Source: Octopus vulgaris (lineage: Eukaryota). Taken from it: DNA of 64,000 nucleotides. Below are positions 1,344 through 56,131 of the stretch, piece by piece. The position numbers and the translations under genes are program-made. The notes beneath the pieces are model-generated. The model was not told the DNA's origin and made no database searches. It worked only from the letters and a program-made list of their open reading frames with translations. The stretch covers positions 45,632,001 through 45,696,000 of the forward strand of contig OX597835.1 of NCBI GenBank assembly GCA_951406725.2, written 5' to 3'. How positions within the stretch are numbered: the stretch's first letter is position 1; the number at the start of each line of letters is the position of its first letter.

Positions 1344-1881
1344 CTGCAAATATATGTCTATAAATTAATTCCTTATTTAAATTTCACAATGTATTATTCA
1401 AATGTGTCATAATTCGCCATTCATACGATCGTGATTTATCAATACATACACGGCTTGGTGTAGTTTATAAATTTTCCAAAGGTTGTCTGTCGACAATATC
1501 AGACGTGAGGAATAACCTCATAAGTTGTCAACTATTGACCTTCTGTTGTATTCAGTAATGATAAGATTCTAAAATATAACCTGAATATATAAATATTGAA
1601 TAATTTACATTACGTTTATGTATTCATAACATATAAAAGCATACACTCTCTAGCGTTATCTATCATTTTCTTTCGGGAATTTCAACAATATAAATTGATT
1701 TCTCATTCTATCTGTTTGTCTCTCTCTCTCTCTTTTATTCTCTGTTTTCCCCTCTCCCTCCCCCTATCTCTCTCTTTCTCAAACACACGTAGTCTGTATA
1801 AATGTGTATATGTATTTAGCAATTATAGTTACAAGTAGAGGTCAAGTTCTGGAAAAAGCAGAGAAACACCATGTATGTATG

Positions 1882-1913
<32 letters not shown>

Positions 1914-2014
1914 TTTGTATGTATTTATTGATGCATGCATATGTACATATATATATATATGAATGTATATGTATGCATAAGAATGCATATGTACGTATAT
2001 ATGAATGTATATAT

Positions 2015-2065
<51 letters not shown>

Positions 2066-2165
2066 GATATATATGCATATACAGTGAGAGAAAGAGAGAT
2101 ATATTGACAGATTAACATGTTAAATTTACATACATTCACACATATACATACATATATATATATAC

Positions 2166-2251
<86 letters not shown>

Positions 2252-2978
2252 TCTGTTTTAGGTAATAACAGCCAGACTATAAAGCTGTAGAGGAGAGAGA
2301 CTGTCCATGATGTAAAGCAGAAAATTACACGTTATAAATAACCATTTACACTACACAAATACATGTTACAGGTCAGTGCAAAACGTTATCATCTCTCATT
2401 TTTCACATATTCATGTTAATGTAACGTAAAAATATTCAAGATAAAAGGGAACCCATTCGCTCTACAACTTTTCTACGTCTCTTACATAATCGAAGAATGT
2501 TTGATTCAAGTTAACATAAAAATTCCTGAAGCAAAATAAAAGAGAGATTGTTCTTTTTTACTTATTTAAGTGGTCAATATTTGAATATATTCTCTGTTCT
2601 ATTAAATATTTGGTCTTCATACTTGTGGGATATTGTGTTTAGATAAACGTCCCTTCCTGTATTTGTAAATACGTGTTGTGCATTTGAGTGTATTCAGAAA
2701 AAAAGTTACAATAATCATGACCACTACCTGAAAAATATTATGTTGCTTAAATAGATGCCTGCCAGCAATAAAAGGGGTTCAATATTCGAATACATTATTT
2801 ACACGAATATATTATGCGCAGTGCAGCAGTATATAAAATGTTTAGCAATTGCAAACAAATATGCATCTACAACTTAGATTATGTGAGAACATGTAGTCAT
2901 CATGTATATATTTATTTAGCGTGTTATGTATGTAAATATGTCTGTATGTCTGTATGTCTGTATGCATGTATGTATGTA

Positions 2979-3046
<68 letters not shown>

Positions 3047-3060
3047 CACACATACATACA

Positions 3061-3135
<75 letters not shown>

Positions 3136-3139
<4 letters not shown>

Positions 3140-3468
3140 TTATAATAAAGGGTTATTTGCAACAAGTAGCTTAAACCACATACCGAAAATATTAGAAATA
3201 GCAGTCAATGGGCTACTATTACTAATTACTACAAAAATAAGTCTCCACAAACAACAGTATTTGTAACACAAAGACAACGAAATCACACAGTCTACTTGGT
3301 GATTTCGTTGTCTTCCTTCATTTTACCATATACGGGTTACAAATACTGATGCTTGTGGAGACTTATTTTTGTAGTAATTAGTAATAGTAGTCCATTTGAC
3401 TGTTATTTCCAATATTTTCGGTATGTGATTTAAGCAACTTGTTGCAAATAACCCTTTATTATAATTAT
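3136..3468. repeat. Long fold-back inverted repeat (~132 bp arms) with a nested inner hairpin
   Basis: 3136-3267 is the near-perfect reverse complement of 3336-3468. Inner arms aagacaacgaaatcac (3271-3286) / gtgatttcgttgtctt (3299-3314). Flanked by (TA)n. Confidence 0.9.
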
Positions 3469-3657
3469 ATAATTTTTACCGAATATAGTCCTTTCCATAC
3501 CGAAAGGCTACTAGGTGAAATTTATTGATTTTATTAAATTAATTATATTTCACCCTTTATATGTATATATATATATATATATAATATATATACATATATG
3601 TGTGTATGTGCGTATACATACACACATACACACGAACACACACACACACACACACAC

Positions 3658-3701
<44 letters not shown>

Positions 3702-4089
3702 TATCTTATTTTGAGACTAATAGGTGTATAGCAGTTAGTGTGCTGATCAAAGCCCTAGCACAGTTTGGGCTACCTTATGTCATCCGCAGTTTTAGTTGAG
3801 TTAATAATTGATTAAGGAAACAGACGATACACATAGTATTAGTGTTTATTTCATTCGTTGTTATATATTTAAGATACCAAGATATCAAAAATTGACAAAG
3901 TATAATTGAATAATTTTGCTATGGAATGGCAGAACTACATTTTCGTTTTCAGAGAATGCAACGCTTAGGAATTACGACATATACATAAGTATACATATAC
4001 ATATATGTCTGCATATATATATATACACATATATATATATATATGTATATACATGCATACATAGACATTATATTTCAAAGTATTGTATA

Positions 4090-4258
4090 TCAAAATGGCA
4101 GACTTTGTCACACTCTCTGTCACGCTGAATCTCCCTCAGAACTACGGTAAGGGCATTCGTCACTGCGGGGTGCTTAGCCACCTGCACGTGAATTTCACGA
4201 ACAAGCTGTTCCATTGATCCTATCACCCGTGACCCTCGTCGAAGTAACCAACGGAAGT
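4090..4258 (+). mobile_element. 3' part of a retroposon (SINE/LINE tail), degenerate
   Basis: GC-richer island (gctgaatctccctcagaactacggtaagg...gtaaccaacgga) in AT-rich DNA, ending at a (TA)n tract; resembles a cephalopod SINE tail from memory. Confidence 0.45.
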
Positions 4259-4259
4259 T

Positions 4260-4396
<137 letters not shown>

Positions 4397-5418
4397 CATA
4401 TATATATAATAATAAATATCAGGGAATAAATCCAAACTTACAGGGAAAAATCAGATTTAGGATTGAATCCAATTTTATAGTAAAATATTATATTATATTA
4501 AATTAGAGACAAAACCACATTCATAATCTTTAATTAACGTAGGTTTCTCACGCGCAAAGAATTCCTCAGCAATTTATTCTATTTTTTTTTTTTTTTTGCT
4601 AATAACGTAATTCCATGAGTATTCTTTTAAACGCTGTATAAGACGTTTTTTGATTCAAAATATTTGTTCATTGTTTAAAACTCGCCAAGAAAAGTATGTA
4701 TCTTTTTAAGATCTTCAAATTGTTAACTTTTAATATTGTATAAGCCTTTGGAGTAATAATATTCTCCTTATGTAATTATTGTTGTTTATGTAATGATCTA
4801 ATTATCGTAATTTTCTATGTTATTAGATATTAAATAAATTAGATAAACTTTGATAAAATTAGATATGTTTCGACTAAAGATGGTCTACGCCATGTCTAAT
4901 TTAATAGCATAATTTATATTAGATAATTATTCCCATTCATAATTATGTTTATAGTACTTATAGTATTTATTTAATACTATATTACTCAGAATTGAATATT
5001 TCTATAAGTATTTTACATAAGATTTTGAAAGTCAGTTTAAGTTAGTTTATTTGTATTTTGAAATTAGCTATTTCATCTTTAAATATGGAAAATTTATTAG
5101 GTTTTAAATTTATTAGGTTTTCATTATATACAATTATTTATAGAGATTATTTTAGATCTTGATTATAATATTTATATATATTTTCATTGATAATTTATAT
5201 ATATTAGTCATTTTAAATATTTATGGAATTAGATATAGACTAATATTGATATTAGAATATGGGTTTTCTACCTTATAAATTAAAGTTAATATTTAACATT
5301 ATAGTCGATTTCGATATAATCATATTTAATAATAGAGTTTATTATAAGTAAATTATTATTTTAGATTATATATATTATTTATATCTTAAAAATATTGATT
5401 ATATTTTAGATTTTGAAA

Positions 5419-5481
5419 CCACCGGATGAATGACTGCGACTCAAAAATTTGAAGACAGCAGGCAGGAAACGATCGTAGTGG
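5419..5481 (+). ncRNA. Minimal type I hammerhead ribozyme-like motif (degenerate core CGGATGA)
   Basis: ccac-CGGATGA-(ctgc...gcag stem II)-GAAAC-GATC-GTA-gtgg: stem I ccac/gtgg, palindromic stem III ACGATCGT, GUA cleavage triplet at 5475-5477. Confidence 0.55.
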
Positions 5482-5658
5482 GATATTAATTATATTTTTT
5501 AATAATTTTGTTACATATTTAAATAATATAAATTAATCATATGTATTGGCTTAAGTCTTTCATTGTTTGATTTGCCTAATAGTGGTTTTGTCTCTAATTT
5601 AATACATATATATATATATATAGATACAGGCATGCATACATACATACATACATACACA

Positions 5659-6195
5659 CAGGGTGCGATAAGTAAGTTTTCGTGTATGCACATTACTTAT
5701 TTTTGATTTTGTCGACTACACAGCTTACAGGGTCAGTCTCTGAGGAAAATAACACCATGATGCAATTCACTCTGCCACAAATTTGGAAAAGACATGCTGT
5801 GTGGCTTAGAATTCGCGTCAGAAGATCCAAGACCTACATTTCTTAGTGTATGGGTGTCAATCACAGGGTGTCAAACTCCCTAGACTGCAACACTCTTGAA
5901 TATGTGTAGGGTATAGTTGAGCGAAAGACCGACAAAACCCCTTATAACAGGAAAGATAAACTGAAAGCAAGCATTATGGCAGCATTCACCAACTTAAATA
6001 AACAGACTGTCTAGAAGATATTCCTAAGCCGTCTGGAGGCCGAAATTGAAGCCAAATGGCGATTTTTCTGAATAAAATTACTATTTAGTGTTTCAAGATA
6101 TTTTTATGTAATTTTGGTAAATATATCTGTTAAAATGACATAGCAATATTATTTTCATTTTTGCGTAATTTAGACAAAATATTCACTTCACACTG
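5659..6195 (+). mobile_element. Tc1/mariner-superfamily (maT/DD37D-like) transposon remnant, internally deleted
   Basis: Translates to NSLDCNTLEYV*GIVERKTDKTPYNRKDKLKASIMAAFTNLNKQTV...SRLEAEIEA (SPDxNPxDY motif and transposase C-terminus). Ends CAGGGTGCG... / ...CACACTG followed by TA. Confidence 0.8.
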
Positions 6196-6574
6196 TATAT
6201 ATGGATATATATTGTATCTATGAAGATACATAAATATATATATACATCTAACGTAGGATAAAGTTTTTCGAAAAAAAGTTTTATCAATGGCCAGCATATT
6301 AAAAAAATACCTTTAAAAGTTAATTTTATAAATAACTTATAAAATAAGGGCAAGATAAAAATTCTAATGCCAAATATGCCGAAAATATAATTTATGCGTC
6401 CCGAAACAAGCCGATAGAAATTTCTAAAAAATTCCGTTATTACCGTATTGGTCCCAATTTCAGAGTTAATTCATGAAAAATTTCTCCTCCTCAGCAATAA
6501 ATACGTAAGACATAAATGAAATACTCATACTCATGGAAAAATCAAGCACTAAGTCCTGAGCAGACCTAAGTACC

Positions 6575-31212: not shown

Positions 31213-31826
31213 TTATAGCTTTCAAATTTTGGTACAAGCTCAGTAATTTCAGGTGAGCGAGGAATACTCGATTATATCGGTACAATCGAGTATGCTTACA
31301 TCACCAGCCCCAAAAGGATGAGAGGCTAATGTCACCTCGGTGGAATTTGAACTCAAAATGTGAACGCAGACGTAATGTTGCGAAGTATTTTGTACGACGT
31401 GCTAATATTTCTTATTTCTTTACTGCTCACAAGGGGCTAAACACAGAGGGGACAAACAAGGACAGACAAACAGATTAAGTCGATTATATCGACCACAGTG
31501 TGTAACTCGTACTTAATTTATCGACCCTGAAAAGATGAAAAGCAAAGTCGACCCCAGCGGAATTTGAACTCAGAACGTAACGGCAGACGAAATACCTATT
31601 TCTTTATTACCCACAAGGGGCTAAACACAGAGGGGACAAACAAGGACAGACATAGGTATTAAGTCGATTACATCGACCCCAGTGCGTAACTGGTACTTAA
31701 TTTATCGACCCCGAAAGGATGAAAGGCAAAGTCAACCTCGGCGGAATTTGAACTCACAACGTAACGCAGACGAAATACCGCTAAGCATTTCGCCCGGCGT
31801 GCTAACGTTTCTGCCAGCTAACCGCC
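31213..31826 (-). mobile_element. SINE family B, three tandem/nested core units (~184 bp period)
   Basis: tatttctttattacccacaaggggctaaacacagaggggacaaacaaggacagac at ~31597 and ~31413; head gaaataccgctaagcatttcgcccggcgtgctaacg. Confidence 0.9.
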
Positions 31827-41810: not shown

Positions 41811-42492
41811 ATAGAAATATTAAAATAACTAAGTCTCTCTAAAAGAGAACAGCGGCAGCGTTCCCGGAAAATGATAGTTATCGCCATACTAATATGGCAT
41901 TCTTATAAAAATAAGAAAAAAGCTGTCCGCTTATTAGCTCCATGAGGCCATCGCCTTAAGTTAGCTATTTGATACACAAACTGTATCCATATAACCTTCG
42001 AACAAGGGAGGTCAGTCGCTCCACACTACTTGACCGGCAGCTACAGACGCGTTTCATGGAGCTAATAAGCGGACAGCTTTTTTCTTATTTTTATAAGAAT
42101 GCCATATTAGTATGGCGATAACTATCATTTTCCGGGAACGCTGCCGCTGTTCTCTTTTAGAGAGACTTAGTTATTTTAATATTTCTATTATTGAAAACAA
42201 GTGGATGTATTCCACCGAAACTAGGTAAATAAAACCATCGAACAGAGATTGTCGGAAGCGACACCTACTGGCTGGCTACGCTGCATTGAAAAGGGGCAAT
42301 ACCCCGAAACGCGTCTGTAGCTGCCGGTCAAGTAGTGTGGAGCGACTGACCTCCCTTGTTCGAAGGTTATATGGATACAGTTTGTGTATCAAATAGCTAA
42401 CTTAAGGCGATGGCCTCATGGAGCTAATAAGCGGACAGCTTTTTTCTTATTTTTATAAGAATGCCATATTAGTATGGCGATAACTATCATTT
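41811..42492 (+). mobile_element. Retrozyme/Penelope-like element: inverted partial copy (41811-42055, minus) joined to ~1.2 direct units of a 362-bp repeat
   Basis: 41811-42055 is the reverse complement of unit sequence from GAAACGCGTC to aatatttctat; atggagctaataagc recurs at 42056 and 42418; (TA)n on both flanks. Confidence 0.85.
42280..42321 (+). ncRNA. Minimal type I hammerhead ribozyme, U3-A8 core variant
   Basis: gctgca-TTGAAAA-GGGG-caata-CCCC-GAAAC-GC-GTC-tgtagc; predicted cleavage after C42315; stem III palindrome ACGCGT. Confidence 0.8.
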
Positions 42493-52949: not shown

Positions 52950-54018
52950 TCTATATCGTTTTATATATATAAACAAAGGATGTTTGTGTGTGTGTAATAC
53001 GTATGCATTTCTACAGTTTTCAACCGATTTTCTCCAAACTTTACACGTGCACTATATCATTTTGCCCAGAGCTCCAGCGTAATGCACTACGTTTATTGAA
53101 ATACACTATTTACATTTCTTCCTCTATTGAAAACCGTTGTGTAATATTTCTTTACTTTTCTTCTTTCACTATTGTGTGTTTTTGCGTGTTCGATGTGTAC
53201 GAGATTGTAAAGGACATTTCAATCCACGACGACAACGTCACATATATGCGTGTGTATGTGTCTCTGAGTGTATGTGTGTGGGTGTATGTGTGTGTAAGTC
53301 TCCCTGATTCTGTGTGTTTCCGCGGTAGGTACGCAATTAAACATACACACACATCTACACATACATATACACATGTGACAACTGACATGCGTAAATTTAT
53401 GGCTATATGTGTCTCTCTTGCTATATGTATGAGTCTGTATGAGAGAATGTATGTGTGCGTATCGACACATTTTGTATATGAATGTGTATGTGTCTCTGAG
53501 CAAGTTGGTATTTGCAAGCCCGTTACCTACGTTATTAAACACGCATACATCTACACAAACTCTTAACAAAAACAATTACTTAGAAGGCCCACGGTATATG
53601 AAAATATACATCTACCTTTCCATTAACAGTTCATGATTATCGCAGCAGTTGCAAGGCTGCAAGTTATTTACAATTTGCTTATATTTGGTTACTTTACACT
53701 GCATGTAAAAATATAGACATACTACATAAATACAACTACTTACAAAAATACATATTAATGAATGTTTTTTTTTATATGTACATAACAAGTTTCTTAAAAT
53801 ATGGAAAACATGTCACAAAAGGAAAAACATAATCTTTTCAGAAAAATCCTATAAAGCAAGAAGGAGTGCAGAAAACCGAACGCGTGAGTCTCAAGAGACA
53901 AGGGACATGAAACTTTCTCAACATCAGCAAAGGCATGTTGCAGCACAACAGATGGAAACACAATATAGAAGGGACATGGCACTTTCCAAAGATCACCAAA
54001 TACAGTCAAATACAGTCT

Positions 54019-54068
<50 letters not shown>

Positions 54069-54497
54069 GGGCCGGAGAGAAGACTTTCTTAACATCAGCC
54101 ACAGCATGCTTCAGCACGTTTTGATGGAGTTCCACGGCAGAAGGGAGACGAGACTTTCTCAAGATCGGCAAAGGCATGTTGCAGCACTTAATGCTGAAAC
54201 ATTAAATCAACGTTTAGCAAGCCAGATTACACAGAGGTCGAATAGAATAGGTCTCCGTAAAAGGCCGCATACAGATTCGCTTTGCACAAAAACGGGAGCT
54301 GCTTTCAGATATGATCAATCGCTTCTTGTATAAGCAATTTTGTCCAAATTGGTGTGGTAAACTCAAATTGTCATTTATGCACAAATTTACTCCACAAAGG
54401 ATTTGCTGTCAATGCTTCAGTTTCCCGTATCGCCAGTTTCCACACTAATGTAATATATGCTGTCTTAACCCCGAGCAACGCCGGGTATCTCTGCTAG
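52950..54497 (+). mobile_element. Non-autonomous Helitron derivative carrying N-terminal Rep/Helicase remnants
   Basis: A|TC 5' end, 3' hairpin cccg-agcaacgc-cggg then CTAG|T at 54494-54498. Internal translation RETRLSQDRQRHVAA (repeated charged units), then GAAFRYD...VQIG..NSNCHLC, like Helitron N-termini. Confidence 0.75.
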
Positions 54498-55207
54498 TGT
54501 ATACATATAGCGGCGTACGTACACTTTTGCTCACCTTGTATGTTTCTAAATTTTGTAAGACAGTTTTTCGTTTTCTTTTTAGTCCCTGTCATACTTTCTT
54601 CTTTCCTTCCCTTTTTTCTCACTCCCCCTTTCTCTCACTTCTTAGCTTTTTCTTTCATTAATTCCTACCTTTCCTCCTCGTTTAGATCCCTTGTACATTC
54701 CTCTGCGCCCCTTTGATTTCCACTCCTTCTCGTTCTTCGCTAGTCCTTCAATGTTTCTGCTTTCTGCTCGTCTCCTTTCCCTCCACGTGACCGGCGGTGT
54801 TCTGCCACGCATGATCTTCCTTTCCTGTCGCTTGACTTTCATCTCCTGTTCATCTCCTTTTCCTGCCTCAAGGATTTCACTTTAAACACGCCAGCTCAAC
54901 CTCATTCGTCCCTGTTAGTCGAAAGACGCTGGTTGTCATTTCCTTGTTGTTTGTATTAGGAATTGTGTGACTTGTTCTCCGATTTTTGGCTCCTCTTCTT
55001 ACTCATTCGCTTGCTCTCTCCCCCAAAATTTAATACTCTTAGCTTTATGTATATATGTACTTATATGTACATATACGCATAAATACATATATGTATACAA
55101 TTTTAATATTTCTATTATTGAAAACAAGTGGATATATTCCACCGAAACTAGGTAAATAAAACCTTCGAACAGAGACGATCAGTGGCGACACCTGCTGGGT
55201 CGACTAC

Positions 55208-55250
55208 GCTACATTGACAAAGGGCAACTACTCTGAAACGCGTCTGTAGC
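55208..55250 (+). ncRNA. Minimal type I hammerhead ribozyme, U3-A8 variant (unit 1)
   Basis: gctaca-TTGACAA-AGGG-caacta-CTCT-GAAAC-GC-GTC-tgtagc; predicted cleavage after C55244. Confidence 0.8.
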
Positions 55251-55571
55251 TGTCTGACTAGCAGTGTGAAGCGGCTGACCTCCCTTGTTCGAAGGTTATA
55301 ATGGACACAGTTTGTGTGTCAAATAGCTATCTTAAGGCGATGGCATCATGGAGCTAATCAGCGACAGCTTTTAGTCTTATATCTATAAGACTGCCATATT
55401 AATATGGCGATAACAATTAATTTCCAGGAACGCTGCCGTAATCTCTTTTAGAGAGACTTAGTAATTTTAATATTTCTATTATTGAAAACAAGTGGATGTA
55501 TTCCACCGAAACTAGGTAAATAAAACCATCGAACAGAGACGGTCAGTGGCGTCACCTGCTGGGTCGACTAC

Positions 55572-55614
55572 GCCACATTGACAAAGGGCAAATACCCTGA
55601 AACGCGTCTGTAGC
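55572..55614 (+). ncRNA. Minimal type I hammerhead ribozyme, U3-A8 variant (unit 2)
   Basis: gccaca-TTGACAA-AGGG-caaata-CCCT-GAAAC-GC-GTC-tgtagc; predicted cleavage after C55608. Confidence 0.78.
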
Positions 55615-56131
55615 TGTCTGACTAGTAGTGTGAAGCGGCTGACCTCCCTTGTTCGAAGGTTATAATGGACACAGTTTGTGTGTCAAATAGCTATCTTAAG
55701 GCGATGGCCTCATGGAGCTAATCAGCGACAGCTTTTAGTCTTATATCTATAAGACTGCCATATTAATATGGCGATAACAATTAATTTCCAGTAACGCTGC
55801 CGTAATCTCTTTTAGAGAGATTTAGTAATTTTAATATTTTATTCTCTCTCTATATATATATATTTATATGTACGCATGTACATATATATAGTTTTATATT
55901 ATGATAGCTACAAGGACATCACAAAATAATGTCTAGCGTTCATTCCCTCACTTTCCCCATCATTCTTGATCACAGCTGAACAACGAACGAGAACGTGAAA
56001 CTCTGAGTTGCAGTAATTTCGTGTTATTTTTTATAATTTTAATCATAAAATAAAAGAATATTACTCTACCTCCTGAATTCGATCGCAACTTTTCTCCATC
56101 ATGTTTCGCCTTTATGTACTTACTCGTGTAT

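Follow-up and report, generated by a model that had tools for sequence, protein, structure and literature searches.

A hammerhead retrozyme family with a U3-A8 core in Octopus vulgaris, most likely inserted by Penelope-like machinery

Mussel retrozymes of 350-390 bp form circles; Penelope-like elements (PLEs) were suggested as the partner of retrozymes (Cervera & de la Pena 2020, PMC7229834). The PLEs themselves carry minimal hammerheads, which cleave poorly; in Schistosoma, ~1,300 of these motifs have U3-A8 (PMC4209133), and U3-A8 has also been described in several natural hammerheads that are active in vitro (PMC3088659). Insertions of PLEs are known for a tail on one end only, an inverted 5' arm and a bias toward microsatellites (bioRxiv 2021.04.23.441226), and the tail corresponds to the stretch between two internal start sites of reverse transcription (PMC11167929). 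A 2026 preprint linked retrozymes to PLEs, with the insertion mechanism still to be worked out. A 2026 annotation of octopus repeats includes 31 PLE families, and its main text does not mention ribozymes or retrozymes (PMC13282606). Our literature search, made mostly in open-access papers, returned no report of the family described here, of any tandem retrozyme with U3-A8, or of an A3-U8 core in a natural hammerhead. Either of two studies, Przybilski & Hammann 2007 and Lunse 2017, may already cover U3-A8 or A3-U8.

The octopus family resembles the metazoan non-LTR retrozymes such as those of the mussel (PMC7229834) in its tandem non-coding units, one type I hammerhead per unit, extensive self-pairing and absence of LTR features, and differs from them in the U3-A8 core and in a tail, inverted-arm and (TA)n anatomy that is not seen in what that paper describes; circles were shown there and are predicted for the octopus family. 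With the Cercyon PLE hammerheads of Schistosoma mansoni (PMC4209133), it shares U3-A8, palindromic positions 15.2-16.2 and loop 3, and a dimer-type design; those hammerheads lie in pseudo-LTRs or occur as single motifs and have a 7-8-bp stem II and a 4-5-bp stem I, whereas the octopus ribozyme, with a 6-bp stem I and a 4-bp stem II, lies in an ORF-less tandem unit. The insertions are like those of EN+ PLEs in 5' truncation, partial tandems, the inverted 5' arm, a tail on one end only, two start sites of reverse transcription and AT-rich or microsatellite targets; the differences are the missing ORF and a tail of ~60 nt, compared to 30-40 nt (bioRxiv 2021.04.23.441226, PMC11167929). The 2026 preprint, on the basis of co-occurrence and of homology to pseudo-LTRs, came to the same conclusion overall; it deals mostly with vertebrates, no mollusc is among the groups it names, and end anatomy is not seen in what it describes. 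For the octopus family, in contrast, we found the integration signature and, in comparison to 17 PLE 3' ends, no pseudo-LTR homology.

The window array and its hammerheads

The window, i.e., the whole analyzed stretch of 64,000 nucleotides (contig OX597835.1, positions 45,632,001 to 45,696,000, of assembly GCA_951406725.2), was searched with TRF, which reported the repeat as one array at 55099-55843 (period 364, 2.0 copies, 96% matches). The two head-to-tail 364-bp units of the preliminary description are thus recovered; they differ at 11/364 positions, and unit 2 is followed by a partial third unit of 13 nt. The array end lies near 55843 and not at 55838, as given before. The insertion is a single direct arm that terminates at the outer 3' site; it has no inverted arm, and both flanks are TA-rich microsatellite sequence. 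Private differences of the units are given in Table 1; for unit 1, they were counted over 333 nt, with the majority of 30 other subfamily-1 units as reference.

Table 1. Coordinates of the features in the window and of PLE loci in the genome
Feature	Position or locus	Strand	Remarks
Whole insertion (L001)	55099..55843	+	one direct arm of ~2.05 units, 5'-truncated
Unit 1 (364 bp)	55099..55462	+	4 private differences from the majority
Unit 2 (364 bp)	55463..55826	+	6 private differences before the 3' end, 0 in common with unit 1
Type I hammerhead 1, U3-A8 core	55208..55250	+	predicted cleavage after C55244 (C17); stem I (6 bp) 55208-55213/55245-55250; U3 55214, U4, G5, A6, C7, A8 55219, A9 55220; stem II (4 bp, one G.U) 55221-55224/55231-55234; G12-A14 55235-55237; stem III palindrome ACGCGT 55238-55243
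Hammerhead 2	55572..55614	+	364 nt downstream of hammerhead 1; predicted cleavage after C55608; U3 55578, A8 55583
Predicted 364-nt monomer between the two sites	55245..55608	+	circular fold -114.3 kcal/mol, z -5.9; monomer fold z = -5.87; longest ATG ORF 18 aa
Degenerate second hammerhead-like motif	55118..55158 (and 55482-55522)	+	starts at the outer 3' end; GAAA box lost in subfamily 2
Long interrupted stem, ribozyme at tip	55160..55297	+	closing arms 55160-55171 and 55286-55297
Short hairpins downstream of the long stem	55304..55411	+	compensatory changes 55306/55318 and 55374/55391 between subfamilies
Inner fixed 3' end	55777..55787 (unit positions 315-325; also 55413-55423)	+	in other copies, terminus of the inverted arm
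PLE-type tail, ~60 nt, between inner and outer 3' ends	55786..55843	+	internal copy 55422-55482
Sister insertion, youngest subfamily	41811..42490		inverted arm 41811-42056, direct arm 42054-42490
Young autonomous PLE family	L211-L214, L220, L237-L246		tandem units of ~4.7 kb; upstream open frame of 330-480 codons
PLE families read by eye	L046, L052		U3-A8, GCAA in place of GAAA
PLE families read by eye	L217, L219		U3-A8
PLE families read by eye	L034, L215		C3-G8; L215 with C at position 4
PLE family E, 3' ends	L051, L227-L236		A3-U8 core (ATGAATA), 2-bp stem II, palindrome ACCGGT, GUC site

Both units have a GUC site, ending at 55244 and 55608. The gctaca stem I that had been assigned to each unit does not apply to unit 2, in which T>C at 55574 creates a C.A mismatch (55574/55612) private to this unit; we count this mismatch of the second ribozyme against the explanation favored below. 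The closing stem described for both units is found in unit 1, but unit 2 reads aaccatcgaaca, and T>A at 55528 leaves a mismatch there in its long stem. A tight ribozyme motif had three matches in the window, compared to 0 in 100 shuffles. The third match belongs to the sister insertion, which is absent from the preliminary description and has a U3-A8 core at 42286-42315 with N7=A and a stem II of four G-C pairs. Rfam hammerhead models gave 0 matches at E<=10 in positions 55150-55320, and Rfam matches near the locus were rejected as microsatellite noise.

Each unit also contains a second hammerhead-like motif, which agrees at 17/20 nt with the 3' half of a PLE hammerhead; this similarity is not significant compared to shuffles. 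It was rejected as an active ribozyme because of its extra bases, the non-palindromic sequence and the loss of a box in subfamily 2, and it is probably a relic or a chance resemblance. Elsewhere in the window there are a further tandem dimer (31413-31779; period 184, 89% matches) and four diverged 61-nt direct repeats (53886-54187; spacings 69, 102 and 70).

The genome-wide family and conservation of the ribozyme

A search of the 2.8-Gb genome with the unit gave 2,925 first-look candidates; among the 40 that were scored, near-full-length matches were 94-100% identical. The exact ribozyme pattern has 1,875 matches genome-wide and 0 in the control, in agreement with the earlier proposal of a retrozyme-like family, and 999 exact outer 3' ends run into TA. 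The same pattern with C3-G8 has 0 matches genome-wide; together with the Rfam result, this confirms that consensus-based searches miss the family. A looser ribozyme pattern gave 1,442 matches, and the 100 of them that were listed contained essentially only this family.

Fetched loci yielded 110 distinct units, which group as five subfamilies, separated by 5-15%, and one singleton; the sizes of the subfamilies do not reflect genome proportions, because the loci were either top matches or picked by their 3' end. Unit length is 361-365 nt, GC content is 40-42%, the longest array has ~7.5 units, and the longest ATG ORF in five monomers is 18-64 aa. The best copies of the youngest subfamily are 99-100% identical. 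The family has the sequence features of non-LTR retrozymes, namely, tandem non-coding units within the range of 150-450 bp, one type I hammerhead in each and GC<50%, and it is dispersed, multicopy and mobile. Two other element types were considered. A tRNA-derived SINE was rejected, as neither a tRNA-like head (ARAGORN, 0) nor Pol III A and B boxes (exact patterns of the generally known consensus, 0 on both strands) were found; simple satellite DNA was rejected because the median direct arm is 199 nt and the ends are fixed.

The searched stretch is present in 20/24 public datasets under six organism labels, all of them contigs and none recorded as RNA, and four runs under four labels cover 30/30 bins of it. 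Two datasets with a small share (X13 and X14) and four with a share of zero (X21-X24) were left out. Since runs under several labels contain the stretch, the family is common to several taxa. Contig depth in the four runs dips around the ribozyme; such depth carries no information on level, ends or strand, so that the dip was given no weight. A metagenome scan gave 0 matches.

Several individual loci deserve mention. A subfamily without loop 3 is found at L197 and L203, and GAAACGTC in L197 is the minimal hammerhead form. At L226 (G000:C1:28104500-28107500), a two-armed insertion is present twice with its flank, 1.1 kb apart, as a result of either local duplication or an assembly artefact. Two retrozyme insertions in L221 flank a LINE-like element (1537-6403) whose open frames have 370 and 1,140 codons. 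The U3-A8 hammerhead-like motif of L224 (G000:C1:113375011-113375042), which has the same palindrome and a GUC site, does not belong to the retrozyme family and has no PLE ORF nearby.

U3 is present in 109/110 units and A8 in 110/110, so that the U3-A8 swap noted earlier at this locus is a trait of the whole family, accompanied by covarying stems. The non-canonical core of the preliminary description is not new: it is already described in PMC3088659 and in the ~1,300 Schistosoma motifs of PMC4209133; it is a rare but known natural variant. Being invariant in the family, the pair itself gives no covariation signal. The other core positions (U4 G5 A6, A9, G12 A13 A14, A15.1-U16.1 and H17) are each conserved in 107-110 of the 110 units, and N7 is variable (A/C/T = 41/36/33). 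Between the subfamily majorities, 80/333 positions differ; 13/14 core positions are identical in all five subfamilies, with a 1:1 tie at the remaining position in a subfamily of two copies. Core invariance by itself is modest (P=0.02, or 0.12 when the tie is counted).

The ribozyme stems provide further evidence. Among 20 chosen units, pairs changed on both sides occur in stem I, in stem II (one each) and in the palindrome centre; two-sided change in ribozyme pairs amounts to 20 cells, compared to 5.4 in shuffles (0/500), and three such pairs were reached in 8/500. It should be noted that the compensatory changes represent few events (one or two each), because pair shuffles ignore relatedness. 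The stem III palindrome exists as ACGCGT, ACATGT and ACGT across the family; in one subfamily, it is shortened to ACGT in one copy and the other copy reads ACAT. Over the whole unit, two-sided change was found in 7/94 pairs (14/500 shuffles), several pairs of the long stem are broken in some subfamilies, and paired and unpaired positions vary between subfamilies equally often (46/188 and 34/145). The covariation of stems I and II and the palindrome, together with the free N7, would be as expected for a type I hammerhead under selection.

Circular folds of 5/5 monomers have z values of -5.9 to -8.9 (40 shuffles each), and each monomer folds more stably than its own reverse complement. In the monomer fold, the intramolecular probability of stem III is 0.0; this stem would need a second molecule, with which its palindrome can pair, and the GUC site is paired with G5-A6-N7. 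This predicted fold is as expected for a dimer-gated ribozyme. The pairing of G5-A6-N7 with the predicted cleavage site and the modest core statistics also fit another explanation, in which a SINE-like element carries along a hammerhead that was left over from a PLE pseudo-LTR and is no longer active; in vitro, 8/9 of the predicted Xenopus dimers did not cleave, and one did (2026 preprint). A relic would hardly be expected to keep covarying pairs in both stem I and stem II, a stem III palindrome in three versions and a core in which only N7 varies, whereas the second, relic-like motif within the same unit does decay; we consider this explanation very improbable.

Insertion ends and autonomous PLEs

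Three sets of top matches have one end at unit position 17-21, whereas their inverted arms stop near 315-325; both ends lie in (TA)n. For a sample independent of length, we took the first 100 by position of the 999 exact outer 3' ends and dropped the duplicate L131 (n=99; the local duplicate L121/L122 was retained, and L112 extends past the fetched locus). An inverted arm is present in 61/99 of these insertions, which were chosen by their 3' end; 51/61 inverted arms end at unit positions 315-325, and 46 of those 51 adjoin TA repeats. The insertions thus have two fixed 3' ends ~60 nt apart in (TA)n and no poly(A) tail, and 51/61 inverted arms lack the ~60-nt tail; the inner 3' end would be a second start of reverse transcription. 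A tail with two 3' ends, an inverted arm, 5' truncation and an AT-rich target make up the PLE signature, and the copy ends accordingly read point most likely to PLE-type enzymes as the inserting machinery. These ends are unrelated to the predicted cleavage site of the ribozyme, a point absent from the preliminary description; the new information lies in the insertion ends and the integration record more than in U3-A8.

A search for autonomous partners with the Pfam GIY-YIG model gave 6,136 candidates genome-wide, of which 150 were scored, so that some PLE families may have been missed. A young autonomous family encodes a 781-aa RT+GIY-YIG ORF; 14 copies are 98.5-99.9% identical and one is ~97% identical. 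Its hammerhead is of the U3-A8 type, and its two 3' ends lie in (TA)n at a distance of ~38 nt. The two-3'-end design is thus the same as in the retrozyme, whose tail is longer (~60 nt). The linker of the protein, C-X4-C-X2-C, agrees at the motif level with Neptune elements (bioRxiv 2021.04.23.441226). Several autonomous PLE families of this genome carry U3-A8, and others have C3-G8 or A3-U8 (read by eye; Table 1). The A3-U8 motif of family E is present in 10/10 fetched copies and in L051, with a tail of ~55 nt; a protein search with family E returned family E matches only. Comparison of the retrozyme unit to 17 PLE 3' ends (~6 families) by shuffled local alignments showed no significant similarity (1/51 tests at p=0.03), and therefore no PLE can be singled out as the partner. 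BLAST of the unit against 30 GIY-YIG loci gave one real match, L049, which is a separate retrozyme insertion in the opposite orientation, and tblastn found no PLE ORF at six loci with widely spaced ribozyme pairs.

LINEs also make 5' inversions, and LINEs are present in this genome (1,140-aa ORF in L221), so that the partner could be a LINE instead of a PLE; alternatively, the tandems could have arisen by DNA-level amplification (unequal crossover, satellite-like) after insertion of a monomer. Local tandem amplification was proposed for retrozymes in the 2026 preprint, and homogeneous arrays could arise in this way. The fixed ends in (TA)n, the missing poly(A) and the tailless inverted arms described above speak against both variants. 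In addition, arm lengths are non-integer and are fitted by a single exponential (KS p=0.096, n=85, with L122 also dropped), and the inverted and direct arms of an insertion have alleles in common. We give this pair of explanations hardly any weight. The element is very probably a non-autonomous, non-coding, non-LTR retrozyme mobilized by PLEs: judged by its sequence, it appears to be real and of the retrozyme type, with recent activity, a core that is rare but known, and PLE machinery as the most likely mover.

Template and proposed route of insertion

Arms that reach the predicted cleavage site pass it in 42/45 direct and 27/28 inverted cases. A cleaved linear monomer as template was rejected, because stops at the site number only 3/45 and 1/28, respectively. 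Two stops at unit positions 146-147, seen at hand-picked loci, were not borne out in the larger sample. With L122 dropped, the number of stops per kb is 3.3 up to the site, 4.6 between the site and one full unit, 3.9 from there as far as the second site, and 4.7 past it. Stops peak on entry into the long stem (10/59; P=0.0013 uncorrected, ~0.04 over 28 windows), and the 5' ends of genomic copies concentrate at its 3' arm (unit positions 183-198).

The distribution of alleles was analyzed across 166 segments from 61 loci of the youngest subfamily. Sharing of minor alleles is 208:33 within a locus and 2,564:31,412 between loci, a contrast weakened by the few loci that hold two insertions or were fetched twice. 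Units of one insertion have a common haplotype, and in L221, L129 and L112 derived alleles fill whole arrays, for which a monomer-to-multimer step is needed. A circular template explains the read-through, the stop rates and the shared alleles; long homogeneous uncleaved multimers explain most of these.

Such multimers are the core of an explanation that keeps the same element and the same PLE machinery, and takes an uncleaved multimeric transcript as the template; the ribozyme would then trim read-through RNA or need a protein. It has a precedent in the anole PLE, for which hammerhead mutants had no effect on insertion, uncleaved RNA was the dominant substrate in vitro, and the hammerhead required the PLE protein (PMC11167929). 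It also predicts read-through of the cleavage site, and long arrays able to act as sources exist. However, no rise in the stop rate is seen past one or two units, even though the majority of genomic copies do not reach two units (22/99 exceed 384 nt), and the arrays filled with derived alleles require the step from monomer to multimer. We regard an uncleaved template as rather unlikely.

We favor a circular template, in the following chain of events. Tandem copies would be transcribed, and two hammerheads, held together by their palindromic stem III, would cleave behind GUC to yield a 361-365-nt monomer, with the core sequestered in the lone monomer, as structure and covariation suggest. By analogy with other retrozymes, the monomer would be ligated into a circle. 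An RT/GIY-YIG protein, presumably of a PLE acting in trans, would nick (TA)n DNA, and reverse transcription would start at the two internal sites ~60 nt apart to produce two arms joined at their 5' ends, the anatomy seen in the copies. Synthesis would run around the template and past the cleavage site, with random stops that are more frequent on entry into the long stem, in line with the observed read-through and length distribution; the tandem units would therefore be made at insertion. We assign a probability of roughly 0.6 to this chain as a whole, including the circular RNA template. Against it count the poor cleavage of PLE minimal hammerheads, the single cleaving dimer out of nine in Xenopus, the findings on the anole PLE, the missing similarity to the 17 PLE 3' ends, the difference in tail length from the youngest autonomous family, and the limits of the core and pairing statistics. 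A more specific reading, to which we give slightly less than even odds, is that this is an active animal retrozyme and that a PLE protein having no sequence in common with it copied a ribozyme-made RNA circle by rolling-circle reverse transcription from two internal start sites, an event recorded in the genomic copies; the PLE hammerheads of the host genome would use three different 3-8 pairs (C-G, U-A and A3-U8), a pool missed by CUGANGA searches.

The U3-A8 core by itself is no discovery. The family bears on the question of how animal retrozymes are inserted, i.e., which partner moves them and whether a circle or a linear multimer is the template. A single genome contains about a thousand copies whose ends can be read, a youngest subfamily of nearly identical members and a young PLE that is intact, and therefore this question is directly testable here, both computationally and in vitro. 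The family also illustrates that entire families of high copy number escape ribozyme censuses that rely on CUGANGA or Rfam.
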